A stretch of DNA of 64,000 bases from an uncultured Alphaproteobacteria bacterium. Lineage in GTDB: Bacteria; Pseudomonadota; Alphaproteobacteria; Acetobacterales; Acetobacteraceae. This document shows positions 1,366 through 19,350 of this stretch, piece by piece. Position 1 is the first letter of the stretch; every line of letters begins with the position of its first letter. The translations under genes and the position numbers were made by a program. Under the pieces are notes generated by a model, which had not been told where the DNA came from, did no database searches, and saw only the letters and a program-made list of their open reading frames with translations. The stretch spans positions 42,022 to 106,021 of the forward strand of contig CAVWVL010000003.1 in assembly GCA_963758415.1 (NCBI GenBank). Reading direction: 5' to 3'.

Positions 1366-1446
1366 TCCTTCCCAGGCAGGTTCGTGACTTCACGCCAGCG
1401 AGTGGCGGCTGGACGCGCACTCGGGCGGCAACGAAGGGGATTACTT

Positions 1447-3381
1447 ATGGCTCTCGTGAAGCGGAACCAGATCAGTGGTCACGTCGTGGAGAAGACGGCC
1501 GAGGTGGTCGACCTACCTGGCAGCGCCGGCACCAAACTGGTCGCTGACGCCCAGAAGCGCAAAGCGCGGACGTTCGCTCGGCAGCAGAAAGCCTCCGAGC
1601 GGATCGCGACCGCCACCTCGCAACTGTCCAGCGGGATCGCGGAGTCGGCCTCGGCGGCCGAGGAACTCCGCAAGGCATCCGAGCAGATCGCCCAGGGCGC
1701 CGAGGAGGCAGCAGGTGCTGCACAAGAATCGCAGAAGGCGGTGGTCCACGGCGCCGGCCTGATCCTCCAGGCCACGAGCACCGCCAACCTCTCCGCCACC
1801 AAGAGCGAGGCGCTGCAGGTCATGCTGCAGAACATCTCCGGTCAGATCGCCAATTCAATCGCCGCCATCGGACGTACCGCCGACCGCCAGGAAGGCTCGG
1901 TGAAGAAGGTCGAGGAACTAGAGCGACAGGCAGCCGCCATCTCGGAGGTCGTCAAGGCGGTGGCGCGAATCGCCGATCAGACCAACCTGCTGGCACTCAA
2001 CGCGGCCATCGAGGCGGCACGTGCCGGACAGCACGGCAAGGGCTTTGCCGTGGTCGCCGACGAGGTCCGCACGCTGGCTGAAACCAGCGAAAAGAGCGCA
2101 CGTGAGATCCAGGACCTGATCGCCCAGATCCAGAAGGACGTGAAGGTGATCGCCGAGGGAATCAATGCCTCTGCCGCCGCCGCCAAACAGGAGGTCGAGA
2201 AAGGCAAGGTCATCACCGCGCAGCTGGAGCAGACGCGCACCGACGTGATCGAAATCGCCAATGGTGGTCGCGAGATCGCCAAGGCATCGGAGGAATCTGC
2301 CACCGCCGTCAAAGAGGTGCAGAAGGGTGCCGAGCTGATCGCCGCCGCCGCCGAGGAGCAGAGCGCAGCCTGCCAGGAATCGCTGAAAACCATCGACCAG
2401 CAGACCCAGGCGCTGACCCTGTCCGAGCAGACCGCGCAGGAACTGTCGGAGCTGGCCGACGAACTGAAGAATTCCAGCAATATCTCCAAAAGCAGCGAGG
2501 AAGTCGCCGCGGCGGCCGAGAAACTCTCTTCGGCGGTGGAAGAAATCAACCGGGCCGCCGCGCAGATTATGACGGCGCTCGATCAGATCCAGAAGGGCGC
2601 TCAGCAGCAGGGCGCCGCCACCCAGGAGGCCTCGGCCGCTATCGCCGAAATCGAACGGGCCGGCCAGTTGTCGCAAACCAACGCGAAGTCCGCGGTGGAA
2701 AAGAGCGGAGCCATCTTCGAACTGATGACAGCCAACAAGAAGGCGGTTGACGAACTGATCGCCGGTGTCATGCAGTCGGTCGAGGAGGGAAAGAAAAGCC
2801 GCGAGCAGATGACCGCTCTCGAACAGGTCAGCCGGCGCATCGACAAGATCGTTGACGCCATCACGACAGTCTCGATCCAGACCAACATGCTGGCGGTCAA
2901 CGGCTCGGTCGAGGCGGCACGCGCCGGTGAGTTCGGCAAGGGCTTCGCCGTGGTGTCGACCGATATCCGCAACCTGGCCCGGGATTCGGCCGAGAACGCC
3001 GACCGCATCAAGGACACCATCAAAGCCATTCAGGATCAGATCGGTCAGGTTCGCCGGGATCTGGAGGACATCGGCAACGCCGCCGCTGCGGAGGTCGAGA
3101 AGAACAAGGTCATCAGCACGGATCTGGAAACCGCGGTGAAGGAAGTGACGGCGGTGTTGCAGGGCAACAAGGAAATCCTTGATGGTGCCGAGGAGATCCT
3201 CCGCATGGACAAGGAGGTGCAGACCGGCGTTGAGCAGATCGCCGCCGCCGCCCAGGAGACCACCCGCGCGACCGGCGAGGCGGGCGTCGCCGCCAAGCAG
3301 CAGTCCAAGGGAGCCGAGGAGCTTGCCGCGGCGATCGAGGAGATCGCATCGCTGGCGGACGAGTTGCAGGCCGCCGACTGA
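1447..3381 (+). CDS. Soluble methyl-accepting chemotaxis protein with two signalling domains (DosM-like)
   Basis: Two hairpin-tip motifs, [34 protein letters not shown] and [34 protein letters not shown]; no transmembrane segment; ATG 1447 follows the RBS-like AAGGGGA. Confidence 0.92.
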
Positions 3382-3523
3382 GGTTTCCGCAACCGCCCAC
3401 TTGCGTGGAGCATGGTCGCGCCGGGCGGGTCGTCCAAAGCGTGTGAATCATGCCCTCAAACAAAGAGTTAGACCATTTTCAGGCTGAACAGTCAGGCCGG
3501 GAATGGTCTCGAAAGGACCAACC

Positions 3524-5110
3524 ATGTCCGAAGTTGCGGAAGCGGTCCGGGACCATGTCCGGTCCCCGCCGGAAGATGACACGGGCGTCGGCGATGCCCG
3601 CCAGTTCGTGATCTTCCATGTCGCCGACGAGATGTTCGCGGTTCCCCTGGCCGAGGTTCAGGAAATCATCCGCATGCCTGAGGTGGTGCATGTCCCCATG
3701 AGCCCCGCCGGCCTGGAGGGTCTGGCCAATCTGCGCGGGACCGTGCTGCCGGTCATTCGCCTGCGGCAGATCTTTGGCATGGAACTGGTTGAACATGACG
3801 ATTCCACCCGGGTCGTCATTCTCGACCAGGGCCGGCCCGTCGGGCTCGTGGTCGACCGGGTCGCCAATGTCGTTACTGTCGAGAATGATCGTATCGAAGC
3901 GGCCGACGCTATCCAGGGCACCGTCGACACCGACCTGATGACCGGCATGATCAAGGCCAGCGACGGCAAGTCCATGGTGATGATCCTGGATGCCGCCAAG
4001 GTGGTCGCACGCGAGTTCAAATCGGTCGGCAGGACGCAGCGGACCAAGAGCGCCGACAACGGGCATGACAGCCAGTCCGAAGACCACAAGGCGCACGTCG
4101 ATACCGAAGACGGCAGCGACGAAAGCCAGTTCGTCAGTTTCGAGGTCGCCGGACAGGAATATGCGCTACCGATCGAGCAGGTGCAGGAAATCGTCCAGAT
4201 CCCGGACGAGATCACCGAAGTGCCCAACACCCCGTCACACGTGCTGGGTGTAATGACGCTCAGAAACCGGCTGCTGCCGCTGGTTTCGCTCCGCGACATG
4301 TTCCGCCTGCCGCCGCGTGAGGTCACCGACACTAACAAGATCGTGGTGGTGTCGCTGGGGGACGCGACAGACGGCAGTTCGGTCGGCGTCATGATGGACA
4401 GCGTCAAGGAGGTTCTGCGCGTTGGCCGCTCCGTCATCGACCCGGTGCCCGCGTTGCTTTCCCGTGACGGCGGCCTCAGCGAAATCCAGTCGATCTGCCG
4501 CCTCAACGGAGGCAAGCGGCTGGTGTCGATCCTGTCGTCGGAGAAGATGTTCAACACCGGCGAGATGCGCGCCATCGTCGAGCACCATGAAGGGGAGGAT
4601 GCGGCGATGGGCGAGGCAGCCACCGGGACGCAGTCCGACGACGTTATCGACGATGAGCAGCAGTTCGTCGTCTTCCGCCTGATGAACGAGGAGTACGGCG
4701 TTCCGATCTCGTCGGTGCAGGAGATCGTCCGGGTTCCCGAGGAACTGACCCGCGTGCCCAAGACCCCGGATTTTGTCGAAGGGGTCGTCAACCTGCGGGG
4801 TGTTGTGCTGCCGGTGGTCGACCAGCGCCGCCGCTTCGGCCTGCCGTCGATGGAGCGCAACGACCGTCAGCGGATCATGGTCTACACCATCCGCGGGGTC
4901 CGCACCGGCTTCATCGTCGACCAGGTGCTGGAGGTGATGCGCATCCCGGCCTCGGTGATCGGGCCGTCCCCGACCTTGTCGGAGGAGCAGCAGCGGCTGA
5001 TCCGCCGGGTCGCCAACATCGAAAAGCAGAAGCGCATGATCCTGCTGCTCGACATCGATCAGTTACTCAACACCAAGGAACTGAGCGCGGTCGGAAAAGC
5101 CGCGAAATGA
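3524..5110 (+). CDS. cheW: CheW with three tandem CheW domains
   Basis: Three repeats of (Q)FVxF....EYxxP...VQEI.R.P.....VP..P..V.G..(N/T)LR; RBS AAAGGA before ATG 3524. Confidence 0.92.
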   Translation: MSEVAEAVRDHVRSPPEDDTGVGDARQFVIFHVADEMFAVPLAEVQEIIRMPEVVHVPMSPAGLEGLANLRGTVLPVIRLRQIFGMELVEHDDSTRVVILDQGRPVGLVVDRVANVVTVENDRIEAADAIQGTVDTDLMTGMIKASDGKSMVMILDAAKVVAREFKSVGRTQRTKSADNGHDSQSEDHKAHVDTEDGSDESQFVSFEVAGQEYALPIEQVQEIVQIPDEITEVPNTPSHVLGVMTLRNRLLPLVSLRDMFRLPPREVTDTNKIVVVSLGDATDGSSVGVMMDSVKEVLRVGRSVIDPVPALLSRDGGLSEIQSICRLNGGKRLVSILSSEKMFNTGEMRAIVEHHEGEDAAMGEAATGTQSDDVIDDEQQFVVFRLMNEEYGVPISSVQEIVRVPEELTRVPKTPDFVEGVVNLRGVVLPVVDQRRRFGLPSMERNDRQRIMVYTIRGVRTGFIVDQVLEVMRIPASVIGPSPTLSEEQQRLIRRVANIEKQKRMILLLDIDQLLNTKELSAVGKAAK

Positions 5111-5162
5111 CGAATGCCGCGCCGCGCGCGTTCACCCTGATTTGCTCGGGAGCGCCACCGCC

Positions 5163-6287
5163 ATGCCCAAAGCGTTGATTGTTGAAGATTCGGCGCTGAT
5201 GCGTCGTCATCTGAAGCAGATCCTCGAGGAAAAGGGCGGCTACGAGGTCATGGCGGTGCGCAACGGCATCGATGCCCTGGAGGCGCTGCGCTCGTTCGAT
5301 CCCGACGTCATCACCCTGGACGTCAACATGCCCGAAATGGACGGGCTGACCTGTCTGTCGCGTATCATGGCGGAGCGGCCGAAGCCGGTGGTGATGGTCT
5401 CCTCCCTCACCGAGCGTGGTGCCGAAGTCACATTCGAAGCCCTCGCGCTCGGCGCGGTCGATTTTATCCATAAGCCTGACGGCACCATTTCGCTGAACGT
5501 GCAGCAGGTGGAGGGAGAACTGCTCGCAAAGGTCCACGCGGCCTGCCGAGCGCGGCCGCGGAGCACGGTCGGACTTCGGCAGCGGCTGCACAGCCAGACA
5601 GGTGATGGCCGGGAGCGGCGTTCCGGGGTGGATGGTGCATCCGGGTCCTCTCCACGACCTTTTCGAGACGGCTTCGGTGCCGTGATCATTGGCGTGTCTA
5701 CTGGCGGCCCGGGAACCTTGGAGGAAGTCCTGCCTGGGATCCCGGCTAACTTTCCCTGGCCTGTCGTGGTGGCGCAGCACATGCCGGCCAGCTTCACCAC
5801 CGTGTTCGCGCGCCGCCTCGCCGAACTGTGCCGCGTTCCGGTGATCGAGGCCGCGCATTTGATGCCGCTGAAGCCCGGCGTCATCTACATCGCCAAGGGT
5901 GATGCCGATGTGCTTATCAGCAAGCGTGCCACGGGCTGGATGGTGAGCCCGGTGCCCGCGGCCGACCAGTACCTCTGGCACCCCAGTGTCGCCCGCCTGG
6001 TCGAAAGCGCGATGCAGGCCATCCCTCCGGACCACCTCGTCGGTGTCCTGCTCACCGGCATGGGGGACGATGGCGCCAATGCCATGTGCGAACTGAAGCG
6101 GCGGGGCGGCCGCACCATCGCGCAAGACGAGGCAACCTCGGTGATCTGGGGCATGCCTGGGGAATTGTTCAAGCGTGGCGGCGCCAACCTCATGCTGTCC
6201 GCCAATCGCATCGCCACCCAACTCGATGTCTGGCTGACGCCGCATTCTCCGATCCGGGAGGCACACGGTGGCGCTGGTAAAATCTAG
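5163..6287 (+). CDS. cheB: Chemotaxis methylesterase CheB (REC + methylesterase)
   Basis: REC domain (LIVEDS, TLDVNMP, FIHKP) plus GVSTGGP, QHMP and LTGMGDDGA catalytic motifs. Confidence 0.95.
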   Translation: MPKALIVEDSALMRRHLKQILEEKGGYEVMAVRNGIDALEALRSFDPDVITLDVNMPEMDGLTCLSRIMAERPKPVVMVSSLTERGAEVTFEALALGAVDFIHKPDGTISLNVQQVEGELLAKVHAACRARPRSTVGLRQRLHSQTGDGRERRSGVDGASGSSPRPFRDGFGAVIIGVSTGGPGTLEEVLPGIPANFPWPVVVAQHMPASFTTVFARRLAELCRVPVIEAAHLMPLKPGVIYIAKGDADVLISKRATGWMVSPVPAADQYLWHPSVARLVESAMQAIPPDHLVGVLLTGMGDDGANAMCELKRRGGRTIAQDEATSVIWGMPGELFKRGGANLMLSANRIATQLDVWLTPHSPIREAHGGAGKI

Positions 6288-6888
6288 CCGGGACGGCGCA
6301 TCGCCTCCACCGCAAGCTGAAACGCCCGATCTGGCGACATTGCTGGCCGATCTGGCGGCGGAGCAATCGGCGGTGCGTCGTGCCGCGGTCCGCGCTCTGG
6401 CGGATTATCCGGAAGCGGCGCTCGATCTCTGCGACCGGCTCGGAGCGGAGGCCAGCCCCAGCGTTCGCGCGGTGCTCTTCTCCACCCTCATCCGCCTGAA
6501 GTCACCCGACGTGGCGGCGCGCCTGACCGAACTGCTGCGCAGCCAGGACGTGCCGCTGCGCAACGCCGCGATCGAGGCGCTGCAGGAGATGCCCGATGCC
6601 GTCGCGCCTCATTTCGAGCAATTACTGGCCGACGAGGACAGCGACGTGCGCATTTTCACCGTCAATATTCTGGCGGCACTGCGCCACCCCAGGGCATCCG
6701 AATGGCTCATCGATGTGATGCGCAGCGATCCGCATATCAACGTCTGTGCCGCGGCGGTGGACGGATTGACCGAGGTCGGTGGCCTGGAGGCGCTGCCTGA
6801 TCTGGAGGACCTGCGCGACCGGTTCGCCGGCAATGCTTTCATGGAGTTTGCCATTGATACCGCCATGCGTCGTGTCCGCGGCGAATGA
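6268..6888 (+). CDS. HEAT-repeat protein of the chemosensory operon
   Basis: Repeats such as VRRAAVRAL, LRNAAIEAL, VRIFTVNIL, VCAAAVDGL; lies between cheB and cheR. Confidence 0.85.
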   Translation: MALVKSSRDGASPPPQAETPDLATLLADLAAEQSAVRRAAVRALADYPEAALDLCDRLGAEASPSVRAVLFSTLIRLKSPDVAARLTELLRSQDVPLRNAAIEALQEMPDAVAPHFEQLLADEDSDVRIFTVNILAALRHPRASEWLIDVMRSDPHINVCAAAVDGLTEVGGLEALPDLEDLRDRFAGNAFMEFAIDTAMRRVRGE

Positions 6889-7763
6889 CCGTGGGCTCAT
6901 CCGCCACACCCGCGTCGCCGGACCTGGGCGTCATGACGCACGAGGAGTTCGCGAAGTTCGTGGAATACTTCTACCGGAAGACAGGAATCCAGTTTCAGGA
7001 CAGCAAGAAATACTACGTCGAGCGGCGCATCGCCGACCGTGTCAAACAGACCCGGTCAAAAACGTTTCGGGACTATTTCACCCTGGTTCGCTTTCAGGCA
7101 TCGGGGGAGGAATTGCAGCTTCTAGTCAACTCGATGACCGTGAACGAGACCTACTTTCTGCGGGAGGACTATCAGTTCGACGCCCTGGTCAACGGAATTC
7201 TGCCCGAGATTGCCCGCACCAAGGATCGCGCCAGTCCGATCCGGATCTGGTCCATTCCGTGCTCGTCTGGCGAAGAGCCTTACTCGATCGCCATCAGCAT
7301 CCTTGAGCGGTGGGGTCAGGCCGATACCTGGAATATCGAAATCCAAGGCTCCGACATCGATTCTAAGATCCTTCAGGAAGCGCGAGTTGGCCTGTTCAGC
7401 GCGCGATCCATTTCCCGGGTGCCCACAAACCTGAGGTCGAAATATTTCGTTCCGCGCCCCGACGGCAGTCTGCAGATCAGCGATGACCTTCGGGGTTCGA
7501 TCGATTTCTCGTTGATCAACGTCGTCGACCCCCTGCAGACGCAACGCTTTCGCAACATCGATGTGATCTTCTGTCGCAACCTGCTGATCTATTTCGATGA
7601 CAGCGGCCGGCGACAGACCGTCGAGATGCTGTTCGAGGCCCTGGCTCCAGGTGGTTTCATCTGTCTGGGACATTCCGAAAGCATGAGCCGAATGTCCTCG
7701 GCTTTTCTGCCGCGGAAATTTCAGGACACCATCGTCTACCAAAAGCCCCGGTCCGCGGAGTGA
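6885..7763 (+). CDS. cheR: Chemotaxis methyltransferase CheR
   Basis: TVNETYFLRE, RIWSIPCSSGEEPYSIA, GSDID, DVIFCRNLLIYFD, LGHSES. Confidence 0.95.
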   Translation: MTVGSSATPASPDLGVMTHEEFAKFVEYFYRKTGIQFQDSKKYYVERRIADRVKQTRSKTFRDYFTLVRFQASGEELQLLVNSMTVNETYFLREDYQFDALVNGILPEIARTKDRASPIRIWSIPCSSGEEPYSIAISILERWGQADTWNIEIQGSDIDSKILQEARVGLFSARSISRVPTNLRSKYFVPRPDGSLQISDDLRGSIDFSLINVVDPLQTQRFRNIDVIFCRNLLIYFDDSGRRQTVEMLFEALAPGGFICLGHSESMSRMSSAFLPRKFQDTIVYQKPRSAE

Positions 7764-7767
7764 CCTC

Positions 7768-8190
7768 ATGAGCGAAACAAAAAGCCAGGGACGGGGCGGC
7801 GAAGCAGACAAAAATCGGCCGCGCATCCTGGTCGTCGACGACAGCATCACCATGCGCCTGTTCTACCGATCGGTGCTTGAGGCGGCCGGGTTCGAGATCG
7901 ACGAGGCTGCCAACGGCCTGGAAGGGTACGAAAGGATCCTGACCCGAAATTTCGACCTCGTGATCGTCGACATCAACATGCCGAAGATGGACGGTTACAC
8001 ATTGATCAGGACGGTGCGCGGCGACGCCGCCGTGCGGACCATTCCCGCGGTCTTCGTCAGGACCGAGGCCGGCGAGAAGGACTCCGCCCTGGCCTACGAG
8101 GCCGGAGCAAACTTCTATCTGGTCAAACCAGTGGCTCCTGCCGAATTGGCCGAAGTTGCGCGCCTGATGACGGGCATGGCGGCCCCATGA
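7768..8190 (+). CDS. cheY: CheY-like single-domain response regulator
   Basis: ILVVDDS, IVDINMPKMDG, YLVKP. Confidence 0.88.
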   Translation: MSETKSQGRGGEADKNRPRILVVDDSITMRLFYRSVLEAAGFEIDEAANGLEGYERILTRNFDLVIVDINMPKMDGYTLIRTVRGDAAVRTIPAVFVRTEAGEKDSALAYEAGANFYLVKPVAPAELAEVARLMTGMAAP

Positions 8191-10826
8191 CCGACTCGCT
8201 GCTCGAAAGCTTTGTCGCCGAGGCTCGCGAACTGCTGCAAAGCTCCGCCGCGGCGCTGCTGGTGCTCGAGAAGCACCAGGGCGATGAGGCCGCGATCAAC
8301 GAAGTCTTCCGCTCGGTCCACACCCTGAAGGGGTCGGTGGGCCTGTTCGATTTTCCCGCCTTCACCAAACTGGTCCATGCCGGCGAGGACGTGCTCAGCG
8401 CGGTCCGCGAGGGAGCCCTCGAGCTGTCATCGGCACTGGTCGACACCCTGCTCGATACGCTTGACCAGGTCAGCGCCTGGGTCGACGACATCGCGAACAA
8501 CGCTGCCCTGGCAGCCGGCGCCGATGGTGTCTCCAAGGATATGACCGCAAGGTTGCGTGCTGTCCTGCCGGCCGACTACGGCGTTGTCCAGTCGACCAGG
8601 CCGGGCGCGACGGCCGCCGATTTGACCGCGGTTGACTGGCTGGCGGCGCTGCCCGAGGCGGACCGGCTGGCCGCCTTTACCGCGGCAATGGACGGGGCCG
8701 AAATCCTCGCCGTCGAGTACGCTCCCGGTCGAGACTGCTTTTTCAGCGGCGAGGACCCCTTTATCCTGTTCCGCCAGTTCGCTGGCCTGCACAGCCTCAC
8801 GATCGGGCCGACCGAGCCCTGGGGGGCGATCGACGCCTACGACCCGTATTGCTGCACGCTGTGCTTCCACGCGCTGGTGGCGGCATCGCGGGCTGAAGTC
8901 GAGGGTGTGTTCCGCTACGTCGTGGAACAGGTGCGGCTCGCCCCGGTGGCGCCGCAGGGATTGATTTCGGTCGCCGGTGACGGCACTGGCGCCCCGGACA
9001 ACACGGACTTCGTCGAGGCGGCGCGCGGCCTGATCACCGCCGCCGAGTGGCCCGCGTTCCGCCGCCTGGTCGATGCCCGTCGCCAGACCACGCCGCCTTC
9101 GCACCTGCTGGCGTCGGCCCTGGCTGGACTGGAAGCGGTGCTCACCGTCGCTTTTCCCGATCCGACATGGCTGGCCGCCCTCGTCGATTGCATCGAGAAG
9201 GGGGAGCCCGATCCGCATCCGCTACCGTTCCCGCCCGCCGAGCCCGCGCCACCCCCTGCGATTGCGGCAGCGCGACCCTCGCCGGTCGGCCGCCGTGCCG
9301 AGCAGGCAACCATCACCGCTCTGGGGGCGATCTCTCCCATGGCCGCGGGCATCCTGACCAGCCAGCGCGCTATCTTAAGCCCGCCGATGCCGCCCGACAG
9401 GCTGGCCGTGATCCTCGATTCGACAGCCCGAACGGTCGCCAACGTCCTTGCCGCGGAAGGCCGCCGAGGCACCGACACCATGGCATGGTCGGCGGCGGTC
9501 GATGCCGCCCGGACGCAGAACGATGCGGCCGCGGTGCTCGAAGTGCTGGACCGCTGGCTGATTGCGGACGAAGCCGTGGCACCCTCCCTGGAAGATGGGT
9601 CGCGGCAGGCCGTCCCGGAGACCGCCGCCAAGGAGGCAAAACAGGCCAACCGCGTGCTGAAGGTCGACCAGGCCAGGATCGACGCGTTGATGAACCTGAT
9701 CGGCGAACTCGTGGTGTCCAAGAACAGTCTGCCGTTCATGGCCCGGCGCGCCGAGCGCGTGCATGGCTCGCGCGAGATGGCTCGCGAGATCAAGGACATC
9801 CACGCGGTGATCGACCGGCTGGCGCAGGAGATGCAAAGCGCCATCATGGCGGTGCGCATGCTGCCGGTTTCCGACGTGTTCGATCGTTTTCCCCGGCTGG
9901 TTCGCGACGTCTCGCGCAAGCTGGGCAAGCAGATCGACCTGGTGATCGAGGGTGCCGACACCGCGGCCGACAAGAACATCATCGAGGCACTGAACGACCC
10001 GCTTCTGCATGTGGTGCGAAATGCGATCGATCATGGCATCGAACTGCCGGAAGACCGCGACGACGTCGGCAAGCCGACGCGCGCCACCGTCGTGTTGCGG
10101 GCGTTCCAGGAAAGCGACCAGGTGGTCATCGAGGTGGTCGACGACGGGCGCGGGATCGATCCGGAAATGATCAAGCGATCCGCCCTGTCCAAGGGTGTCA
10201 TCGACGACGAGCGGGCGGCGCGCCTGTCGGACCAGGAGGCGGTGAACCTGGTGTTCACGCCCGGTTTCTCGACCGTTTCAAAGATTTCCGATCTGTCGGG
10301 ACGCGGTGTCGGCATGGATGTCGTGGTCAACGGTGTGCAAAAGGCCGGCGGCGCCGTCACTATCACCTCCGTCAAGGATGTGGGCACCACGGTGCGGCTG
10401 TCGCTGCCGCTCAGTATGGCGGTCACGCGGGTGATGGTGGTCGAGGCCTGCGGCGGGATGCTGTTCGGCGTCCCGATGGATCAGATCGCCGCCACAGTCC
10501 GGGTGCACCGCAACGATGTTCAACACCTCAAGCAGTCACAGGCGTTCGTGTTGCGCGATGCCATCGTGCCCCTCATTCGCCTCGATCGGCTGCTGGGTGT
10601 CGAGCCCCCGGCCTGGTTCGGCGATGGCAACGAAGAAGACGCCGTTCTGGTGGTGCGTTCCGGCGGCAGCCCCGTCGGCCTCGTGGTCGACCAGTTCCAC
10701 GAGGGTATGGACATCATTTTGAAACCTTTCGACGGTATACTGGCAAATATTCGAGGTTACTCCGGTTCGGCGCTGCTGGGCGACGGACACGTGCTGCTGG
10801 TCCTCAACCTCAAGGAGCATCTGTGA
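8187..10826 (+). CDS. cheA: Chemotaxis histidine kinase CheA
   Basis: Hpt FRSVHTLKG; long insert; dimerisation LMNLIGELVV; HATPase LLHVVRNAIDHGIE, DDGRGID, GFST, GRGVGMDVV; C-terminal CheW domain. Confidence 0.95.
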   Translation: MTDSLLESFVAEARELLQSSAAALLVLEKHQGDEAAINEVFRSVHTLKGSVGLFDFPAFTKLVHAGEDVLSAVREGALELSSALVDTLLDTLDQVSAWVDDIANNAALAAGADGVSKDMTARLRAVLPADYGVVQSTRPGATAADLTAVDWLAALPEADRLAAFTAAMDGAEILAVEYAPGRDCFFSGEDPFILFRQFAGLHSLTIGPTEPWGAIDAYDPYCCTLCFHALVAASRAEVEGVFRYVVEQVRLAPVAPQGLISVAGDGTGAPDNTDFVEAARGLITAAEWPAFRRLVDARRQTTPPSHLLASALAGLEAVLTVAFPDPTWLAALVDCIEKGEPDPHPLPFPPAEPAPPPAIAAARPSPVGRRAEQATITALGAISPMAAGILTSQRAILSPPMPPDRLAVILDSTARTVANVLAAEGRRGTDTMAWSAAVDAARTQNDAAAVLEVLDRWLIADEAVAPSLEDGSRQAVPETAAKEAKQANRVLKVDQARIDALMNLIGELVVSKNSLPFMARRAERVHGSREMAREIKDIHAVIDRLAQEMQSAIMAVRMLPVSDVFDRFPRLVRDVSRKLGKQIDLVIEGADTAADKNIIEALNDPLLHVVRNAIDHGIELPEDRDDVGKPTRATVVLRAFQESDQVVIEVVDDGRGIDPEMIKRSALSKGVIDDERAARLSDQEAVNLVFTPGFSTVSKISDLSGRGVGMDVVVNGVQKAGGAVTITSVKDVGTTVRLSLPLSMAVTRVMVVEACGGMLFGVPMDQIAATVRVHRNDVQHLKQSQAFVLRDAIVPLIRLDRLLGVEPPAWFGDGNEEDAVLVVRSGGSPVGLVVDQFHEGMDIILKPFDGILANIRGYSGSALLGDGHVLLVLNLKEHL

Positions 10827-10829
10827 CTC

Positions 10830-11102
10830 ATGCCGCTCAATTTCACCGGGATCACAGCGGTGGCCGACGGCGCATGCCTGGTCGAGGATGCGCTGGCGCT
10901 GCTGGAATTCCTCCAGGCCAATGGCGGTGCCCAGGTCGACCTCGGGTCTTGCAGCCACGTCCATACCGCTGTCCTGCAAGTGCTGCTCGCCGCTCGGCCA
11001 CCCATCTCGGCGATGCCGCGGGAGCCCTTCCTCGCGCGCTGGTTGCCTCAAGCGCTGGGGCTGCCTCAGGCGTTGGCACCGTCGGACCTGGCAGCCGCAT
11101 GA
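10830..11102 (+). CDS. Small STAS-like protein
   Basis: 90 aa, VDLGSCSHVHTAVLQVLLA resembles the STAS_2 motif; lies between cheA and cheY. Confidence 0.65.
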   Translation: MPLNFTGITAVADGACLVEDALALLEFLQANGGAQVDLGSCSHVHTAVLQVLLAARPPISAMPREPFLARWLPQALGLPQALAPSDLAAA

Positions 11103-11124
11103 CATCGGCAACAAAGGACACCTG

Positions 11125-11499
11125 ATGCCGTCCACGGTGTTCATTGTCGACGACTCGGTGACCATCCTGATGAGCCTGGAGGCCATCCTGCACAAGGGCG
11201 GCTTCACCGTCGCGAAGGCGGCCAGCGGCGAGGAAGCGGTAACCAAACTGCAGGGCGGACTGAAGCCGAACCTGATCATCACCGACATTCACATGCCCGG
11301 GATGAACGGCATCGAACTCATTCGCAAGGTTCGCACCATGCCCGGGATTCAATTCGTGCCGATCCTTGTGGTGACCACCGAATCGCAGCAGGCCAAGCGC
11401 GACGAGGCGCGTGCCGCCAAGGCAACCGGATGGCTGGTCAAGCCGGTAAAGCCCGACGATATGATGAAAGTGGTCAAGCAGATTCTGCCCAAGGGATGA
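11125..11499 (+). CDS. cheY: CheY response regulator
   Basis: VFIVDDS, IITDIHMPGMNG, VTTES, WLVKP; RBS AAAGGA. Confidence 0.92.
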   Translation: MPSTVFIVDDSVTILMSLEAILHKGGFTVAKAASGEEAVTKLQGGLKPNLIITDIHMPGMNGIELIRKVRTMPGIQFVPILVVTTESQQAKRDEARAAKATGWLVKPVKPDDMMKVVKQILPKG

Positions 11500-12245
11500 C
11501 CGACACCAGCCACCGCGGCAGCAAGATCTCAGACGCAACGATCGAACAGTTCGCGCGAACCAGGGCGATCGCCGTTGTTGGGAGTGCCGCCGCGGCAGTC
11601 GCCGGAGGCGCCGCTGCCGTCGCCGTAGCCTTCGGCGGTGGCGTGGCGATGGCCTCCCTCGTGGCGCTGGTCACGTTCCTCGGCATGGCGATCGGTTATC
11701 TGCTGGGACGCAGGGATGGCGGCGCGGTGAAATCCGCCAGCCGCCTGATGCTCCGGGTGGCTGACGAACTGGTCGAGTACCGCGCGTTCACCAGCCTGCT
11801 GCGCGACCAGGGTGTTCGCATCATCGAAAGCACCAGCGGCGCGGCGGCGGTGATTATCGCCGGGTTGATGGAGATGGGGGACGCGCTCAATCGCATGCGC
11901 ATGCTGGTGGATCGCGTCACAACCGATGACGCCACGGAACTGCGCACCTTGGTCGAGGCCGTCGATGTCCCGGTTCTCGGCCTGTTGGGGCAACTCCAGT
12001 TTCAGGACATAACCCAGCAGCAGATCGCCTTTCTGTCGCGGCTGTCGCTGATGCTCGACGATCACATGGCGGAGCTGTCGCGCCAGTTGGGCGAGCGGCG
12101 CGGGTCCGATCGCGTCGACAAATTCAAGGACCTGTTCGATCAGGCACTCGGCGACTGCGTCATGGACAGCCAGCGCGATGACCATCACACGGCGTCCGGT
12201 CTGGACATGCGGGAAGCCGCCGGCTCCAAACTCGAAATGTTTTGA
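11496..12245 (+). CDS. Membrane-anchored chemotaxis-associated protein with a CheZ-like FQDxxxQ motif
   Basis: N-terminal hydrophobic stretch, helical body, LQFQDITQQQI (12000-12020), C-terminal KLEMF; ATGA overlap with cheY. Confidence 0.7.
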   Translation: MTDTSHRGSKISDATIEQFARTRAIAVVGSAAAAVAGGAAAVAVAFGGGVAMASLVALVTFLGMAIGYLLGRRDGGAVKSASRLMLRVADELVEYRAFTSLLRDQGVRIIESTSGAAAVIIAGLMEMGDALNRMRMLVDRVTTDDATELRTLVEAVDVPVLGLLGQLQFQDITQQQIAFLSRLSLMLDDHMAELSRQLGERRGSDRVDKFKDLFDQALGDCVMDSQRDDHHTASGLDMREAAGSKLEMF

Positions 12246-12258: not shown

Positions 12259-12693
12259 ATGGCCCGCATACTGGTGGTGGATGACGTCGACGTGGTCCGC
12301 CTGGTGATCAGCAAGATCCTCAAGCGAGCCGGTCACAGTGTCGAGGAGGCGAACAGCGGCGACCAGGCCCTGGCACGCGTCACTCGCCGTGCGCCGGATG
12401 CGGTGGTCACCGACCTGTGGATGCCAGGATCCGATGGCCTGGGTCTGATCAACACCTTGCAGGCCAACTTTCCTGCTGTCGCGATCCTCGCCATGACCGG
12501 CGGGTCACCAAAGTATAGCCAGGAATCTTCGCTGGAGCAGGCACGGCGTGCCGGCGTCGTCCAGATCCTGATGAAGCCGATCGATAAAGTCGAGCTGGTG
12601 GACGCGGTCGATCGGGCGCTCAGCGCGGCCGGCGGCCGGCAGGGCAACCCGGATAGTTCCCTCAAGGCGTCCACCACGCCGACTTCAACCTGA
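12259..12693 (+). CDS. Single-domain response regulator
   Basis: ILVVDD, VVTDLWMPGSDG, AMTG, LMKP. Confidence 0.88.
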   Translation: MARILVVDDVDVVRLVISKILKRAGHSVEEANSGDQALARVTRRAPDAVVTDLWMPGSDGLGLINTLQANFPAVAILAMTGGSPKYSQESSLEQARRAGVVQILMKPIDKVELVDAVDRALSAAGGRQGNPDSSLKASTTPTST

Positions 12694-13059: not shown

Positions 13060-13903
13060 ATGAAGACGCTCAGTTCACTCATTGACGGCGGTCGTAAAGA
13101 TCTGCTTGAGAACTGGGGTGGCATGTTGCGCACCACCTTCACCGGCGCGGCGCGAAAGAACCCGGCAGACCTGGCAACCCTCGCGGCGATCATCGAACGG
13201 CTGGCGGACGCCCTCAATCTTGCCGTCTCTCCCCCGGTCATCGCCGATACCGCCTTCAAGGGTCTAGTGGCATTCATGTCCGACGTCAGCGCCGCCCTGG
13301 CACGCGAAGGCTACACCCCGGAAGAGACCGGCAATTTCGTCATGAGCCTGAAGCAGGCGGCGGATCCCCTGCTGGCGCAAGAATACGGCATGGCGCCAAA
13401 CCAGTTGATCAGCGAAATGGCGGTATTCAACACCATCATTGACAAGCTCGCCTTTCTCACCTTCTCGGCTTACGTGGTGGCGCGCGAAGACGTCATCCTG
13501 CGCCAAAGCGAGTTCGATCCTCGAAATTTCAACGCCGGCGCTGCTCATCTGGGACTCGGTGGTGATGATGCCGCTGGTGGGCGTGATCGATACCCGGCGA
13601 GCGCAGTACATCATGGAGCAACTGCTCAACGCCATATCGCGGGAGGAGGCGAGGGTGGCGATCCTCGACGTCACCGGCGTGCCGATCATCGACACCCGCG
13701 TCGCGCTGCATCTGACCCAGGCGGTCACCGCGGCACGTATGCTGGGCGCCGAGGTGGTCATCACCGGTTTCAGCCCGGAGGCTGCCCAGACACTCGTCAA
13801 GCTCGACGTCAACCTCGGCGGCATGGTCACCAGGGGCACGCTCCGGGAAGGCTTCGCCGAGGCCCTGCGCATTCTGAAAAAGCGTGTCGGGGTCACCGTC
13901 TGA
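13060..13903 (+). CDS. rsbR: Stressosome RsbR (RsbRD_N-like sensor + STAS), +1 frameshift at about 13513 (probably a sequencing error)
   Basis: N-terminal [10 protein letters not shown]...[17 protein letters not shown] in the 13060 frame; [39 protein letters not shown] in the 13439 frame. Both Thr positions equivalent to B. subtilis RsbR T171 and T205 are conserved. Removing one T at 13513/13514 joins the frames. Confidence 0.85.
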
Positions 13904-13914
13904 GGACCACGAAC

Positions 13915-14313
13915 ATGCGCATCCCCATCCTGAGGCTCGGCAATATTCTTCTGACATCGATCCAGTCAGATATCACCGACGAGCACGCGACCACGCTGCA
14001 GACCAACATCGCGGCGCGTATGCGGCAGACCCACGCCCGCGGCGTCATCCTCGATATCACTTCGCTCGAGATCATCGACTCATACATGGCGCGCATCCTG
14101 AACGAAACCGCACGCATGGCGCTCCTCATGGGCGGTGAGGTCGTCATCACCGGAATGAACCCCATGGTCGCGCTCACGCTTGTGGAGATGGGGCGCGAGC
14201 TCGTGGACGTGATGAGCGCGGTCACCCTCGAGTACGGGGTCGAGATGCTGCGGGCGAAACTGAGGGAGCTGGATGGCGTCGGCGGGGAAGCTAGCCTCCA
14301 TGTTGCAGGATGA
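13915..14313 (+). CDS. rsbS: Stressosome RsbS (STAS antagonist)
   Basis: MRIPILRLGNILLTSIQ...GVILDITSLEIIDSYMARIL, with the S59-equivalent Ser conserved. Confidence 0.88.
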   Translation: MRIPILRLGNILLTSIQSDITDEHATTLQTNIAARMRQTHARGVILDITSLEIIDSYMARILNETARMALLMGGEVVITGMNPMVALTLVEMGRELVDVMSAVTLEYGVEMLRAKLRELDGVGGEASLHVAG

Positions 14314-14716
14314 CGTCCGTATCGTGGTTCCGTTGCGATTGCCCGACGATATCGTCCGGGCACGGCAGAGCGGCCGCGATATCGCCCGCACACTCGGTTT
14401 CGGTATGGCGGATCAGACCAGGCTGGCGACCGCGATTTCCGAAATCACCCGCAACGCCATCCACTACGGCGGCGGCGGCGAATGCGAGATTGTCGCCGGC
14501 CATTGGGGGCGGACAGGCGAAATCACCGTCACCATCCGCGATCAGGGGCCAGGCATCCCGGACGTGGAGCGGGCGATGACGCCCGGGTTCAGCACCGGCA
14601 ACAGCCTGGGAATGGGACTGTCTGGCACCAAACAATTGGTGGACACTCTTGTCATCGAATCGGCGCCCGGGCGAACGCACGTGGTGATGGTCATGCGTCG
14701 ATCGGGGCTACGATGA
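14300..14716 (+). CDS. rsbT: RsbT serine/threonine switch kinase (copy 1)
   Basis: RLATAISEITRNA, DQGPGI, GFSTGNSLGMGLSGTKQLVD. Confidence 0.88.
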   Translation: MLQDDVRIVVPLRLPDDIVRARQSGRDIARTLGFGMADQTRLATAISEITRNAIHYGGGGECEIVAGHWGRTGEITVTIRDQGPGIPDVERAMTPGFSTGNSLGMGLSGTKQLVDTLVIESAPGRTHVVMVMRRSGLR

Positions 14717-15462
14717 CCATCCCCCGGATGAACCGGGTTGCGACGACCCTCGCCAGGACAGACCCGGGTACCACGACCGGGACCGCACCGACCCGACCAG
14801 CCTTGCCGCTCGCTCCCGGCGTCACCCTGCCCTCTCGGAAAAACGTCGCGGTGGTCAGGCAGTTCGATGTCTTCCATGCCCGAGAGGCGGCCGCCGCCAT
14901 GGCCACCCGCATCGGCTTCAGCCGCCCCGCCGCTTATCGCCTGGCGACCGCCGTGAGCGAACTGGGCAACAATCTGCTCGATCACGCGCGAACCGGCGGG
15001 CGCGTGGAGCTGATGCCAATATCCCGGGACGGAGTTCAGGGCATCGAGGTGGTTGTCGAGGACGACGGGCCGGGTATTGCCGACCGGGAGATGGCCATGA
15101 CCGACGGCTTCTCCACTGACCGTGGGCTGGGCGGCGGGCTGGGGGGGTGCCGGCGTCTGGTGGATGAATTCGCGCTGGAGTCATCGGTGGGAAAAGGCAC
15201 TCGGGTGACGGCGCGTCTGTGGCTTCGCAAATCGCCCCGCATTACCGGCCCGGAACGACAATGCGGCGGGACCGTGCCTCCTGTCGGCGCCGATCTGGCG
15301 CAAGGCGGCGGCCAGCCTGTTCCGGATGCAGACCCCGGGCGGCCGCCGTGTAAGGCTCATCACGACGGCCACGGTCCGGTCAGCAGCGATCCCGACAGGG
15401 CAAGCCCCGACGCCGTGGGCAGGCTGCGGCGGACGGCCGTGGCGCGGCGTTCCTCGCGATGA
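14713..15462 (+). CDS. rsbT: RsbT-like kinase (copy 2) with N- and C-terminal low-complexity extensions
   Basis: RLATAVSELGNN, DDGPGI, GFSTDRGLGGGLGGCRRLVDEF; the 3' roughly 75 codons look non-conserved. Confidence 0.8.
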   Translation: MTIPRMNRVATTLARTDPGTTTGTAPTRPALPLAPGVTLPSRKNVAVVRQFDVFHAREAAAAMATRIGFSRPAAYRLATAVSELGNNLLDHARTGGRVELMPISRDGVQGIEVVVEDDGPGIADREMAMTDGFSTDRGLGGGLGGCRRLVDEFALESSVGKGTRVTARLWLRKSPRITGPERQCGGTVPPVGADLAQGGGQPVPDADPGRPPCKAHHDGHGPVSSDPDRASPDAVGRLRRTAVARRSSR

Positions 15463-15550
15463 AGCAAAATCGCGCATCCTCCCCGTCGAGGAACTTTACG
15501 ATCAATGGAGCGTCGGACCATTGGGGGTCGGCATCGTGAGCGTCGGAGTA

Positions 15551-16126
15551 ATGAGCGTCGGGCTCGCCAGAAGGTCGGCGAATGCCGCTGATGTGTGCGG
15601 CGACATGGCTGGCTGGTGGTCCAGGGACGGTGTGGAACTGCTGGCCATCGCCGACGGGCTGGGACACGGCAAGGATGCGGCTGTGGCGGCCGCGGCGGCG
15701 CTCGAGGCAATCGCGGCATGGCAGGGAGACAATCCGGTCGGGCTGTTTCATGGCATGAACGTGGCGCTGCGGCCAACCCGAGGGGCGGCGGTCGGCGTGG
15801 CCCGCATGGACTGGGCGACGGAGCAGATCACCTATGCGGCCGTGGGCAACACCCGGGCGGCCCTGTTCGGCGCACATACCACCCGCCTCGATAGTTGCGC
15901 CGGTATTGTCGGCGGCGGCTACCGGCGCCTCACCCCGATCACCGTTCCGTTCCTGTCCGGCGACGTTCTGGCGCTATGGACCGATGGCCTGGACGAGCAA
16001 CTCGAACTCACCGCCGCGGATCATTCCGCGCCCGGGATGGACGCCATGGCCTTGAGACTGCTCGACCGCTTCGCCAGGGGCCGTGACGATCGCTGCATAG
16101 TGGTCGCCCGATTAGTCCCGAGCTGA
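15551..16126 (+). CDS. rsbX: RsbX-like PP2C/SpoIIE phosphatase (start uncertain; ORF open from 15326)
   Basis: PPM motifs CGD, IADGLGHG, AVGNTR, LWTDGL, DDR. Confidence 0.8.
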   Translation: MSVGLARRSANAADVCGDMAGWWSRDGVELLAIADGLGHGKDAAVAAAAALEAIAAWQGDNPVGLFHGMNVALRPTRGAAVGVARMDWATEQITYAAVGNTRAALFGAHTTRLDSCAGIVGGGYRRLTPITVPFLSGDVLALWTDGLDEQLELTAADHSAPGMDAMALRLLDRFARGRDDRCIVVARLVPS

Positions 16127-16127
16127 G

Positions 16128-17540
16128 GTGGAAACCGTCGTGGCGCCCGCGGCCCAACTTTTTGATTTGTCTGACTGGTACGGCCGGCTTCAGCGCGCCT
16201 ATATGGCGACCAGTGACGAGGCGGCGCTCGAGGAAGCGGCTGATCTTGGTCGCCTGATGGCGGTCACCGAAGTCACCATGGAATTGGTCATCGAGATGCA
16301 TGGCGAAGTGCTCGCCGACGAGCTCGCCCGCGCTCCGCATGCCGAGGCGGGCCGGTTGGTGGCCGCTGCCGTCACCGTTCTGTCGGAGCTGATGCTGGCC
16401 TGCCGCCTGGCGTCCCAGCGGGTCGCGTTCGACGACGACACGACCCAACCGGACCGTCAGCCGCGGACGGACGAGCCGCCGTCCGAATTCGTCAGGTTTC
16501 ATCCCGATGGCGCGCTGGTCGGCGATCCATCGGGCGATATCTACGGCTGGCTGGATATTCGGGTCGGCCACGAGGTCTGCCTCGCGGCACGAGCCGCGAT
16601 CGCGCAACGCCGCATTGCCATGTTCCAGACCACCCTGTCCGCCGGGACCGATCCGATGCGCCTGATTGTCTGTCCGTTCCACGATGGTGGCGGCATCATC
16701 GCCATCTCTGACGTCAAACACCTGGTCGACGCGCGCGAACGAGCCTTTCAGCGGCGCAAACTGGAAAGTGTCGGCCAAGTGACCAGCGGTCTGGCACACG
16801 AACTCAACAACCTGTTGCAGCCTATCCTCAGCATGGCGCAGATCGCTCAGGAGGACTATGCGGCCGATACGGAGCTTGGTGAAGCGCTCGCGGTCATCCT
16901 CGACAGCACCAAGCGTGCCGCTGCGATCGTCCACGGCATGCTGCTGTATGTGCGTCGCTCACCCAAGGAGCTGCGGCCCCTGTGCCTCGTCGCGGTGGTG
17001 AAGCAAGGCGTGAACGCCCTGCGCCGTACGGTGCCTTCAGGGATCCTGCTCGATCTGTGTGCCGACCAGGCGGTGGGCCAGGTTGCCGCCAATCCGGACG
17101 AGCTGAACCAGATCATGAAGAATTTGGTCGACAATGCGATCCACGCGATGGGCGGACGCGGCGCGGTGAAGGTCCGCGTGGACGAGGTGCGGATCGCCGA
17201 CGCGTTGGCCGCCCGCATGCAAATAGGTGGGGGTCATTATGCCTGCCTGTCGATCGCCGACAGCGGGCATGGCATTGCACCGGCTCTGCTGGAGCGGGTC
17301 TTCGAACCGTTCTTCACCACCAAAGGCATCGGTGAGGGCACCGGCCTGGGGCTGTCCATCGTGCAGGGGATTGTCAGGTCATGGGGCGGCTGCATCGTCG
17401 CCCGTAACGTTCCGGACGGGGGTGCCGCGTTTGACGTCCTGCTGCCCCTGGTGAATCTTCCCGCACCGCCGGGCGATGACGGTTGTATTTACGGTCCCTC
17501 AAGCGTCGGCGACGCAGTTCGGCCGGCAATTTTAGGATAG
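16128..17540 (+). CDS. Sensor histidine kinase with an N-terminal RsbU_N-like domain
   Basis: N-term YGRLQRAYMATSDEAALEEAADLGRLM...LVIEMHGEVL resembles the RsbU N-terminal domain; H-box LAHELNNLLQPI; NLVDNA, DSGHGI, FEPFFTTK.IGEGTGLGL. Confidence 0.85.
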   Translation: METVVAPAAQLFDLSDWYGRLQRAYMATSDEAALEEAADLGRLMAVTEVTMELVIEMHGEVLADELARAPHAEAGRLVAAAVTVLSELMLACRLASQRVAFDDDTTQPDRQPRTDEPPSEFVRFHPDGALVGDPSGDIYGWLDIRVGHEVCLAARAAIAQRRIAMFQTTLSAGTDPMRLIVCPFHDGGGIIAISDVKHLVDARERAFQRRKLESVGQVTSGLAHELNNLLQPILSMAQIAQEDYAADTELGEALAVILDSTKRAAAIVHGMLLYVRRSPKELRPLCLVAVVKQGVNALRRTVPSGILLDLCADQAVGQVAANPDELNQIMKNLVDNAIHAMGGRGAVKVRVDEVRIADALAARMQIGGGHYACLSIADSGHGIAPALLERVFEPFFTTKGIGEGTGLGLSIVQGIVRSWGGCIVARNVPDGGAAFDVLLPLVNLPAPPGDDGCIYGPSSVGDAVRPAILG

Positions 17541-17545
17541 TGGAT

Positions 17546-18817
17546 ATGGACCCTTCATTCGCGCGCTGCAGTGAACGGGCAGTCCCCTCGCGCTGGATGC
17601 TGCTTTCCGGACTGGCCTGCAGCCTGCTTCTCGCGGACGTTGTGGTCGCCCTTCTACCGGTTACCTCGACGACAATGGGGACCGCTCTGCGCCTGGCGAT
17701 CGTCATGGTCGCCGCGGCTGGCTTGCTGGCGGCGTCGCGACGACGGCAGGCGACCCTGCCCGTCGCGGGGTGTCCGCCGCCGCCCCGGCAGCAGGAACCG
17801 GCCGCGCCCTCGTCGGTCAGCCCCGCCAGTCCGCCGCTCTACACCGGATACGCCGTGGAAGCGGTTGCCTGCTTCCGCAATATAATTGGGGTTCTCAAAG
17901 AGGAAACCGAGCGAGTCATCGGAGACACCGATCTCAACGCCGTCAGCCTGATGGAGGACCTGCGGAGTGTCGAGACCAGCATGGAGGCGTTGCTGACCTT
18001 TATCACCGCCGCGGGTTCCAGCGACCGGGTTGTCCGGATCATCGAGCACACGGAATCCCAGTTGACACACAGCAAGATGGTGATCGAGGAGTTCAGCAGG
18101 GAACGCATCCTGGATGCCGCCAACGCTCAAAAGGCCATGGATGATATAGGCGTGGTCGTTGGCGACCTAGGGCGCATGATCCAGGTCGTGCGCACGCTGT
18201 CCCGGCAGACCCGTATGCTCGCGTTCAATGCGAGCATCGAAGCCACGCGGGCCGGTGTCGCCGGGCAAGGCTTCGCCGTCATCGCATCGGAGATCAAGGA
18301 TCTCTCGTTGCTCTCGGATAAGGCCGCGGTGCAGATCGGCAGCGGCATCGAGAAGCTTGAACACGTGGTCCAGGCGAGCCTGGACACCATAGTCGGCCAA
18401 CGCATCACCAAGGAGACCAGTGGCTTCAACGACATTTCCAATGCCGTAAGCGAACTGACCGAGAATTTGCAGAAGCTGTTCAGCCATCAGCGCGACACTC
18501 TGACGAAGGTCCACTACGAGAACGAGCAAATGGCCGAGCCCATTATGCAGATGATCGGCGCCATTCAATTTCAGGACGTGCTTAAGCAACGGCTTCAGGC
18601 CATCGTCCACTGCTTCGAGAAGATCACCGGTTGCATCGAGAATTCCGTAAACGGCCTGGCGGACGGGAACAGCACGCGGGAACAGGTGGCGACCGTCCTG
18701 GATGCTCAGCTCGGCGAGGCTATTCAGTTCGCGATGCAGGAGCTACGGGGCAGCCGCCAGCCGGCGGCAGGCCAGCCAGACGCCGAACCCGCGGGTGCCG
18801 CGATGGAGATGTTCTGA
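17546..18817 (+). CDS. MCP-like protein with one signalling tip and a C-terminal CheZ-like FQDxxxQ motif
   Basis: Two N-terminal hydrophobic segments; QTRMLAFNASIEATRAGVAGQGFAVIASEIKDLS; IQFQDVLKQRL (18569-18589); ends AMEMF; starts 5 nt after the kinase stop. Confidence 0.82.
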   Translation: MDPSFARCSERAVPSRWMLLSGLACSLLLADVVVALLPVTSTTMGTALRLAIVMVAAAGLLAASRRRQATLPVAGCPPPPRQQEPAAPSSVSPASPPLYTGYAVEAVACFRNIIGVLKEETERVIGDTDLNAVSLMEDLRSVETSMEALLTFITAAGSSDRVVRIIEHTESQLTHSKMVIEEFSRERILDAANAQKAMDDIGVVVGDLGRMIQVVRTLSRQTRMLAFNASIEATRAGVAGQGFAVIASEIKDLSLLSDKAAVQIGSGIEKLEHVVQASLDTIVGQRITKETSGFNDISNAVSELTENLQKLFSHQRDTLTKVHYENEQMAEPIMQMIGAIQFQDVLKQRLQAIVHCFEKITGCIENSVNGLADGNSTREQVATVLDAQLGEAIQFAMQELRGSRQPAAGQPDAEPAGAAMEMF

Positions 18818-18971
18818 GCAGGCCGACGAATATCCGCTGTTAGGTTGACCCTGCGTGATAGCGGCGAAAGCGCGCTGCCAAGGCGCCACCCGACCAGGAG
18901 ATACGGCCACGCCCAGCGCACCCTTGGGTCAGGTTGACTGTTGCACTTTTTGTCGGATAAACACGGACAAG

Positions 18972-19232: not shown

Positions 19233-19350
19233 ACATCGTTAGTCGGGTCAGAGAGTTGTTGGCGCGTCGTGGAAGTGGAATTCCATACCGACCCTTCGGT
19301 CCGCGTCCGGCGACTCGAAGGGTCCCTCCTGCCACGACATCGCTGCACGC

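Follow-up and report, generated by a model that had tools for sequence, protein, structure and literature searches.

Whether serine/threonine (Ser/Thr) partner switching can pass directly into His-Asp phosphotransfer is a question raised by a histidine kinase gene in a 64,000-nucleotide stretch of DNA (the window) from an uncultured alphaproteobacterium of the Acetobacteraceae (GenBank assembly GCA_963758415.1, contig CAVWVL010000003.1, positions 42,022 to 106,021 of the forward strand). The gene closes the operon rsbR-rsbS-rsbT-T2-rsbX-kinase, in which T2 denotes a second gene of the switch-kinase type, and its product carries at its N-terminus the domain RsbU_N, on which RsbT docks in Bacillus. 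Comparison of sequences, models and gene neighbourhoods indicated that the kinase is probably the output of the stressosome partner-switching module, with RsbT docking on RsbU_N and the stand-alone receiver RR2 as the phospho-acceptor. The logic of docking by released RsbT is partly supported, in that it fits all of the comparative evidence.

The RsbU_N domain and the architecture of the kinase

A preliminary description of this DNA, made from its letters alone, had proposed that the first about 90 residues of the kinase resemble RsbU_N, and had named a hidden Markov model search against that family as the check. In that search, Pfam RsbU_N (PF08673) matched residues 18–91 of the open reading frame (ORF) at 27.2 bits (E 4.5e-6), above the curated gathering cut-off of 25.5 bits, and the isolated N-domain scored 31.6 bits. 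In a six-frame search of the 6.24-Mb genome the kinase was the sole RsbU_N match (31.1 bits). RsbU_N was also the top family for 16 of 17 N-terminal segments of homologues (best E 4.8e-8), and the profile of the homologue segments aligned in register with residues 8–64 of Bacillus subtilis RsbU (PDB 1w53, E 0.16), the invariant E27, L30, R38 and L58 and the nearly invariant Y21, E48 and H54 being the same residues in RsbU.

The AlphaFold2 (AF2) model of residues 1–93 had four helices and a predicted local distance difference test score (pLDDT) of 92.6, and when it was compared with 350,542 PDB chains the best match was RsbU_N (2j6y_A, probability 0.95; 1w53, probability 0.93, template modelling scores 0.55/0.60, root-mean-square deviation about 6 Å), followed by KaiA C-terminal domains. 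The Foldseek E values of these matches, about 0.3, are weak, as is usual for a 90-residue helical bundle, and the modelling thus gives moderate support for a four-helix RsbU_N fold. Both the family search and the fold search placed RsbU_N first, and the proposed identity of the N-terminus was upheld.

RsbU contacts RsbT through E24, Y28, I74 and I78, and the contacts on the RsbT side are R19, R23 and N24 (PMC12143880). E24 corresponds to E27 of the kinase, which is invariant in the family. The alignment to 1w53 ended short of the I74/I78 region, and of the contacts only the E24 and Y28 positions were compared.

The gene and its parts, all on the + strand, are as follows.

16140..17540, +, histidine kinase gene, 466 aa, comprising RsbU_N, linker, PAS-like domain, HisKA and HATPase_c, without a receiver
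16179..16400, +, RsbU_N, the four-helix domain of kinase recruitment and dimerisation (Pfam PF08673, AF2, PDB fold matches)
16416..16472, +, acidic, proline-rich linker (alignment, in which its sequence varies among homologues; AF2 model)
16473..16715, +, degenerate PAS-like domain (AF2 secondary structure, Foldseek, alignment to the PAS_4 domain of homologue P0039)
16773..16958, +, HisKA (DHp) domain, in which His220 of AHELNN is the phospho-acceptor (Pfam, alignment)
17091..17450, +, HATPase_c domain with intact N, G1, F and G2 boxes (Pfam, alignment)

The gene had previously been placed at 16128–17540. The frame is indeed open on the + strand from the GTG at 16128, but the GTG at 16140 is the likely start, because P0002 in the database is a protein of 466 aa, a GGAG stands 6 nt before this GTG, and the resulting 13-nt gap after rsbX equals the gap in the relative L092.

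The assignment of the C-terminus to a HisKA/HATPase kinase without a receiver was confirmed: the Pfam scan of the ORF found HisKA at residues 216–277 (37 bits) and HATPase_c at residues 322–441 (80 bits) and no Response_reg match, and the protein is not a hybrid kinase, whereas a receiver is fused to the kinase in the homologues P0025, P0031 and P0033. In an alignment of 26 homologues, H220 in AHELNN, N328/N332, D374/G376/G378, FEPFFTTK and G400/G402/G404 were invariant or nearly so. By its sequence the protein is a HisKA-type kinase with all catalytic boxes in place, and it is cytoplasmic. The HExxN arrangement doubles as the phosphatase motif of HisKA proteins, and the kinase may therefore be bifunctional, acting as kinase and phosphatase.

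The kinase core was 49–60% identical to bacteriophytochrome kinases. Homologue P0014 carries a heme oxygenase domain as a fusion, and relative L085 has a phytochrome-like gene (11512–13859) between the kinase gene and a gene for a methyl-accepting chemotaxis protein (MCP); the fusion and this neighbour hint that the kinase lineage is linked to bilin photoreceptors.

While RsbU_N and HisKA/HATPase had been recognised from the start, what lies between them, a flexible linker and a PAS-like domain, had been overlooked. The full-length AF2 model (mean pLDDT 74) consisted of a four-helix N-domain (residues 4–92), a PAS-like fold (residues 116–191), a helix (residues 193–239) running into the DHp domain, and the CA domain; residues 95–107 had pLDDT below 50 and were predicted to be disordered. 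The PAS-like domain, ordered strand-strand-helix-helix-strand-strand-strand in the model, had no Pfam match and holds the conserved motif CPFHDGGGIIAI, with CPFHDGGG strongly conserved in the homologue alignment. Foldseek aligned about 370 columns of the kinase model to the LOV/PAS kinases YF1 and SB2F1, and residues 105–192 aligned to the PAS_4 domain of P0039. As modelled, residues about 112–192 are a degenerate PAS domain.

In RsbU, RsbT binds the RsbU_N dimer together with the linker, the linker is rigidified and the catalytic domains dimerise, which makes RsbU active (PMC12143880). This rigid-linker mechanism is not directly transferable to the kinase, since the kinase linker is variable and is modelled with low confidence, and the intervening PAS-like domain likewise speaks against it. 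Judged from the model, a single uninterrupted coiled coil is unlikely to carry the signal in the way it does in RsbU or in short RsbU_N kinases such as the protein of Thiocystis; docking may act by stabilising a productive dimer, by relieving an inhibitory contact, or by tethering RsbT as a Ser/Thr kinase.

The operon, the probable docking partner and the candidate receiver

The genes surrounding the kinase, all on the + strand, are as follows.

1384..12245, +, che cluster: MCP, triple-CheW, CheB, HEAT protein, CheR, CheA, 90-aa ORF, CheY-like response regulator (RR; about 11125–11499), 271-aa protein
12259..12693, +, stand-alone receiver RR2, candidate phospho-acceptor
13060..13903, +, rsbR (RsbRD_N and STAS domains), disrupted
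13915..14313, +, rsbS, single STAS domain
14300..14716, +, rsbT, HATPase_c_2 switch kinase, probable RsbU_N partner
14713..15462, +, T2, second HATPase_c_2 gene, between rsbT and rsbX
15551..16126, +, rsbX-like single-domain PP2C (SpoIIE family); start uncertain, about 15527 to 15551
17546..18817, +, MCP after the kinase; start uncertain, the ORF being open from 17483

Domain matches placed RsbS, RsbT and RsbX in operon order, and the stressosome context proposed for the kinase was upheld. RR2-R-S-T-T2-X-kinase-MCP after che genes was also found on four independent alphaproteobacterial contigs, with kinase identities of 77% (L092), 68% (L085, an error-prone assembly), 52% (L086/L087) and 43% (L088), and an MCP gene followed the kinase in those alphaproteobacterial relatives whose contigs extend that far. 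In the gammaproteobacterium Thiocystis violacea (L090), the order R-S-T-T2-X-(RsbU_N-kinase)-receiver (REC) occurred without che genes, the kinase being 32–35% identical. Full-length homologues of the kinase formed about 30 clusters, mostly metagenomic, one of which was labelled Skermanella sp. Scanning of genome contigs with the whole kinase was dominated by generic FEPFFTTK kinases and yielded no orthologues; the synteny was recovered by other searches.

When the N-domain profile was searched against 1.84 billion representative proteins (E up to 0.001), 219 matches were obtained, in almost all of which the domain was N-terminal. Domain counts were taken on 92 representatives of at least 280 aa: Pfam RsbU_N was present in 82, and the other domains were HATPase_c (75), HisKA (68), HisKA_3 (7), PAS (41) and REC (25), with GGDEF in only five and SpoIIE in only two. 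Two representatives were found next to stressosome genes, one directly after an RsbT-like gene and the other directly after an RsbX-like gene. Here and in relatives RsbU_N stands at the N-terminus of a signalling enzyme encoded beside rsbT, and the RsbU_N-(PAS)-kinase is, by these sequence comparisons, a widespread architecture tied to stressosome genes. In L088 an additional RsbU_N-PAS-GGDEF-EAL gene (7705–9990) lies between rsbX and the RsbU_N kinase gene, and the first 192 residues of its product are 35% identical to the kinase N-terminus. One input module on two outputs within one operon is as expected of a docking domain.

Two genes of the operon could encode the docking partner. RsbT and T2 both keep their N, G1 and G2 boxes, but sequence comparison assigned them to separate families, and the two 'RsbT' genes are not equivalent. 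T2 has at least 820 database relatives under generic names (anti-sigma regulatory factor or RsbT). All orthologous operons, that of Thiocystis included, have it between rsbT and rsbX, and in the window it carries low-complexity N- and C-terminal extensions. T2 and rsbX were also considered as one frameshifted fused gene, like the fusion in the paralogous cluster on contig C10, and this was rejected as they are separate genes in all orthologous operons. PDB sequence matches of RsbT and T2 (E up to 0.001) were to SpoIIAB only, with no RsbT chain among them. The RsbU-contact motif of Bacillus RsbT, ARQxGR(N/D), appears to be kept in RsbT here (VRARQSGRD) and not in T2 (HAREAAAAM), which speaks against docking by T2.

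A second stressosome cluster in the same genome, on contig C10 (L091, 260500–272500; ORFs 2818–9211), encodes an intact RsbR, RsbS, RsbT, a 338-aa protein in which a T2-like domain is joined to a SpoIIE phosphatase, and a multi-domain kinase of 1246 aa. The last has an N-terminal HATPase_c_2 domain that scored 77–85 bits to RsbTs versus 25–49 bits to T2s; this RsbT-like domain, with a degenerate ATP lid, is followed by PAS and by HisKA, HATPase_c and receiver matches in two stretches each, and no RsbU_N was detected in the protein. These two fusions suggest that T2 pairs with the phosphatase and RsbT with the kinase, and RsbT rather than T2 is likely to be the partner docking on RsbU_N. The alternative that T2 docks on RsbU_N while RsbT acts inside the stressosome only is improbable: T2 is present in every RsbU_N-kinase operon examined and adjoins the output end of the operon, but it is T2 that C10 fuses to the RsbX-type PP2C and an RsbT-like domain that it fuses to the kinase.

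For the phospho-acceptor, the orphan receiver at 12259–12693 and the CheYs had been named as candidates. A four-residue insertion after strand 4 ('TGGx': 'TGGS', 'SGGR', 'TGGA', 'TGGG') was found in RR2, in the Thiocystis receiver and in the receivers fused to hybrid kinases, and was missing from the CheY-like RRs of the che cluster and from CheB. The stand-alone receiver of Thiocystis overlaps the stop of the kinase gene and has RR2 as its best match, and the RR2 orthologues overlap the start of rsbR by 4 nt in L086, L087 and L088. Because the insertion is common to RR2 and the receivers of RsbU_N kinases, RR2 is favoured as the best candidate acceptor on sequence grounds; the first of the two suggestions was thus strengthened, and the CheYs became disfavoured.

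In the mechanism that we consider probable, the RsbR/RsbS core would release RsbT, which would bind the dimeric RsbU_N of the kinase in the way known for RsbU in Bacillus. Docking would change the balance between kinase and phosphatase activity in the PAS-DHp-CA part; probably it would make a productive PAS-DHp dimer more stable, and would not stiffen a single unbroken coiled coil. RR2 would then receive the phosphoryl group and, having no output domain, would act by contacts with other proteins, for which the neighbouring chemosensory system is a plausible target. T2 would serve with RsbX on the reset side and would not dock on the kinase. Given the one-base insertion in rsbR, the pathway in this genome may run constitutively, may rely on a paralogous RsbR or may be in decay.

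Several features of the surroundings were observed in addition. The 271-aa protein at 11430–12245 had no Pfam or NCBIfam match, and all alphaproteobacterial relatives have it in the same place, between the genes of the CheY-like RR and RR2, at 41–59% identity. A gene for a ParA/MipZ-like ATPase lies between CheA and the CheY-like RR in the more distant relatives (L086, 4934–5764; L088, 2760–3566) and is missing from the window, L085 and L092. Between RR2 and rsbR there is a 366-nt spacer, by eye richer in A+T than its flanks; promoter and terminator scans over 12500–19400 gave nothing above chance, and Rfam gave no noteworthy match in the rsbR leader. An ORF at 200–904, immediately before the che cluster, carries a Mu-transposase C-terminal domain and an integrase-core fragment, and insertion sequence or transposase genes also lie beside the MCP end of the block in L086 and L089.

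State of the locus and competing explanations

Several points weigh against the proposed docking of RsbT on the kinase. Y28 of RsbU, which is required for RsbT binding in Bacillus (PMC12143880), corresponds to E31 in the kinase, a position that varies among E, V, A and D in the family, and in the model the linker appears to join RsbU_N to the rest of the protein with no continuous helix. In Vibrio vulnificus, RsbT did not bind the downstream kinase, which is a kinase without RsbU_N (PMC9237108), and no interaction or activity data for any RsbU_N kinase were found in the literature searched. The kinase was present in just two of 37 genomes of the genus, the other copy lying in a truncated locus. 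Finally, rsbR in the window is frameshifted, and the sensor may be broken or mis-sequenced.

Comparison with L092 and L086 located the frameshift to one extra T at 13513 (GAGTTCGATC versus GAG-TCGATC), which is the only indel in 843 nt of rsbR relative to L092 (84% DNA identity). The insertion puts RsbRD_N in frame 1 and STAS in frame 2, and RsbR is not intact here, while the RsbRs of relatives are uninterrupted and have 275–284 aa. Frame 1 continues in frame into rsbS and yields an artificial 417-aa ORF at 13060–14313; a true RsbR-RsbS fusion was rejected, as the middle 130 residues of this ORF are out-of-frame RsbR STAS sequence. It is possible that the insertion at 13513 is an assembly error. 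Loss of the RsbR co-antagonists frees RsbT in Bacillus, and by analogy the kinase could be constitutively engaged if the frameshift is real.

The alternative that survives best, at a probability that nevertheless leaves it doubtful, is that the locus in this genome is decaying or is a recently acquired accessory, with the kinase orphaned or constitutively exposed to free RsbT. It would account for the single-base insertion as the only indel in rsbR, for the rarity of the kinase in the genus and for the reduced locus of the other genome, G036 (L084, C7:1381000-1400900; 15860–19900), in which CheA residues 478–799 are followed by a partial rsbX, the kinase gene and an MCP gene with several frameshifts; the Mu-type transposase fragment at 200–904 is in line with it as well. 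On the other hand, the other genes of the operon are intact and their catalytic residues conserved, the insertion could have arisen in assembly, and an intact paralogous RsbR is encoded on C10.

It is considerably less probable that RsbT or T2 controls the kinase chiefly by Ser/Thr phosphorylation, RsbU_N being a recruitment site only. RsbT-dependent phosphorylation of downstream kinases has been proposed (PMC9237108), the catalytic boxes are kept in both RsbT and T2, and a flexible linker suits tethering better than an allosteric helix. However, no conserved Ser/Thr acceptor was identified in the kinase, and Bacillus RsbT activates RsbU by binding, with its kinase activity dispensable (Kang et al. 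1998, as listed in PMC4976288; PMC12143880).

Finally, RsbU_N might be a dimerisation module only, with the PAS-like domain sensing a signal independently of RsbT and the operon linkage reflecting co-expression. The poor conservation at the Y28 position, the modelled disorder of the linker and the strong conservation of CPFHDGGG would agree with this, but we regard it as improbable, given that R-S-T-T2-X accompanies the kinase wherever the context is informative, in two proteobacterial classes, that the N-module also occurs on a second output in L088, and that the invariant E27 equals the RsbT-contact residue E24 of RsbU (PMC12143880). Docking of RsbT on RsbU_N remains the preferred explanation of the kinase.

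Relation to known systems and significance

RsbT docking on RsbU_N to switch a histidine kinase is an already-published hypothesis (PMC9237108, PMC12143880). Signalling proteins encoded after rsbX with an RsbU_N-like N-terminus have been described in some alpha-, beta- and gammaproteobacteria, and the classes of stressosome output listed there include HisKA/REC phosphorelays (Heinz et al. 2022, PMC9237108). An AlphaFold model of the dimer of an 'NreB' RsbU_N kinase has been presented (PMC12143880, Fig. 5E), and it has been proposed that RsbU_N is exchanged as a module between outputs of the PP2C, GGDEF and kinase types (PMC12143880). The published kinases share with the one studied here an RsbU_N on a HisKA/HATPase_c kinase encoded just after rsbRSTX and the logic of RsbT docking. 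They differ in that the operons surveyed in PMC9237108 have a globin-coupled RsbR, where RsbR here has an RsbRD_N sensor; in that the kinase of PMC12143880 has a coiled-coil linker, where a PAS-like domain and a flexible linker separate RsbU_N from DHp here; and in that the operon here includes T2 and is surrounded by a che cluster.

Compared with B. subtilis RsbU (1w53, 2j6y), the kinase has a homologous four-helix N-domain and an operon with rsbR, rsbS, rsbT and rsbX, but its output is a histidine kinase instead of a PP2C, the RsbV/RsbW/sigma-B module is missing, Y28 is not conserved and the linker forms no continuous helix. MtG of Moorella thermoacetica (RsbU_N-GAF-GGDEF) likewise has a small sensor-type domain between RsbU_N and the catalytic domain, and is the only non-RsbU output reported to be under RsbT control in the literature searched (Quin et al. 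2012, via PMC12143880 and PMC4976288); its output there is c-di-GMP synthesis, in contrast to the predicted His-Asp phosphotransfer here. VvD1/VvD2 of V. vulnificus also form a two-component kinase system directly after a Gram-negative rsbRSTX stressosome, but no RsbU_N is detectable in VvD1, and it failed to bind VvRsbT (PMC9237108), whereas the kinase here has the docking domain. Kinases of the YF1/FixL type with a PAS-DHp-CA arrangement (4gcz, 8a6x) superpose on kinase residues about 110–440 over about 370 columns, including the PAS-long helix-DHp part, and have neither RsbU_N nor a stressosome context.

The kinase is thus another example of a known, widespread design and not a new kind. 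New here are the PAS-like domain, the probable receiver RR2, the separation of RsbT from T2, and the frameshift in rsbR. More tentatively, the conserved block of about 17 kb (che, RR2, rsbR-S-T-T2-X, kinase, dedicated MCP) may be one integrated device in which stress, passed on by the stressosome, acts on the kinase, the kinase on the 'TGG-insert' receiver and the receiver on the adjacent cytoplasmic chemosensory array, with T2-RsbX as a second, ATP-dependent reset layer; we hold this to be possible rather than probable. If it were true, the block would represent stress-gated taxis or an alternative-function Che pathway, and the T2-RsbX reset layer would be previously undescribed.

In conclusion, kinases are the commonest output on this kind of RsbU_N (75 of 92 representatives), and the locus, with its definite candidate for the receiver and its well-defined choice between RsbT and T2, is one in which the passage from partner switching to His-Asp phosphotransfer can be approached. 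Relatives with an intact rsbR, such as the Skermanella-type operon (L086), are better test systems than this genome. The locus also bears on whether the linker-dimerisation mechanism of RsbU extends to kinases with an intervening PAS domain.

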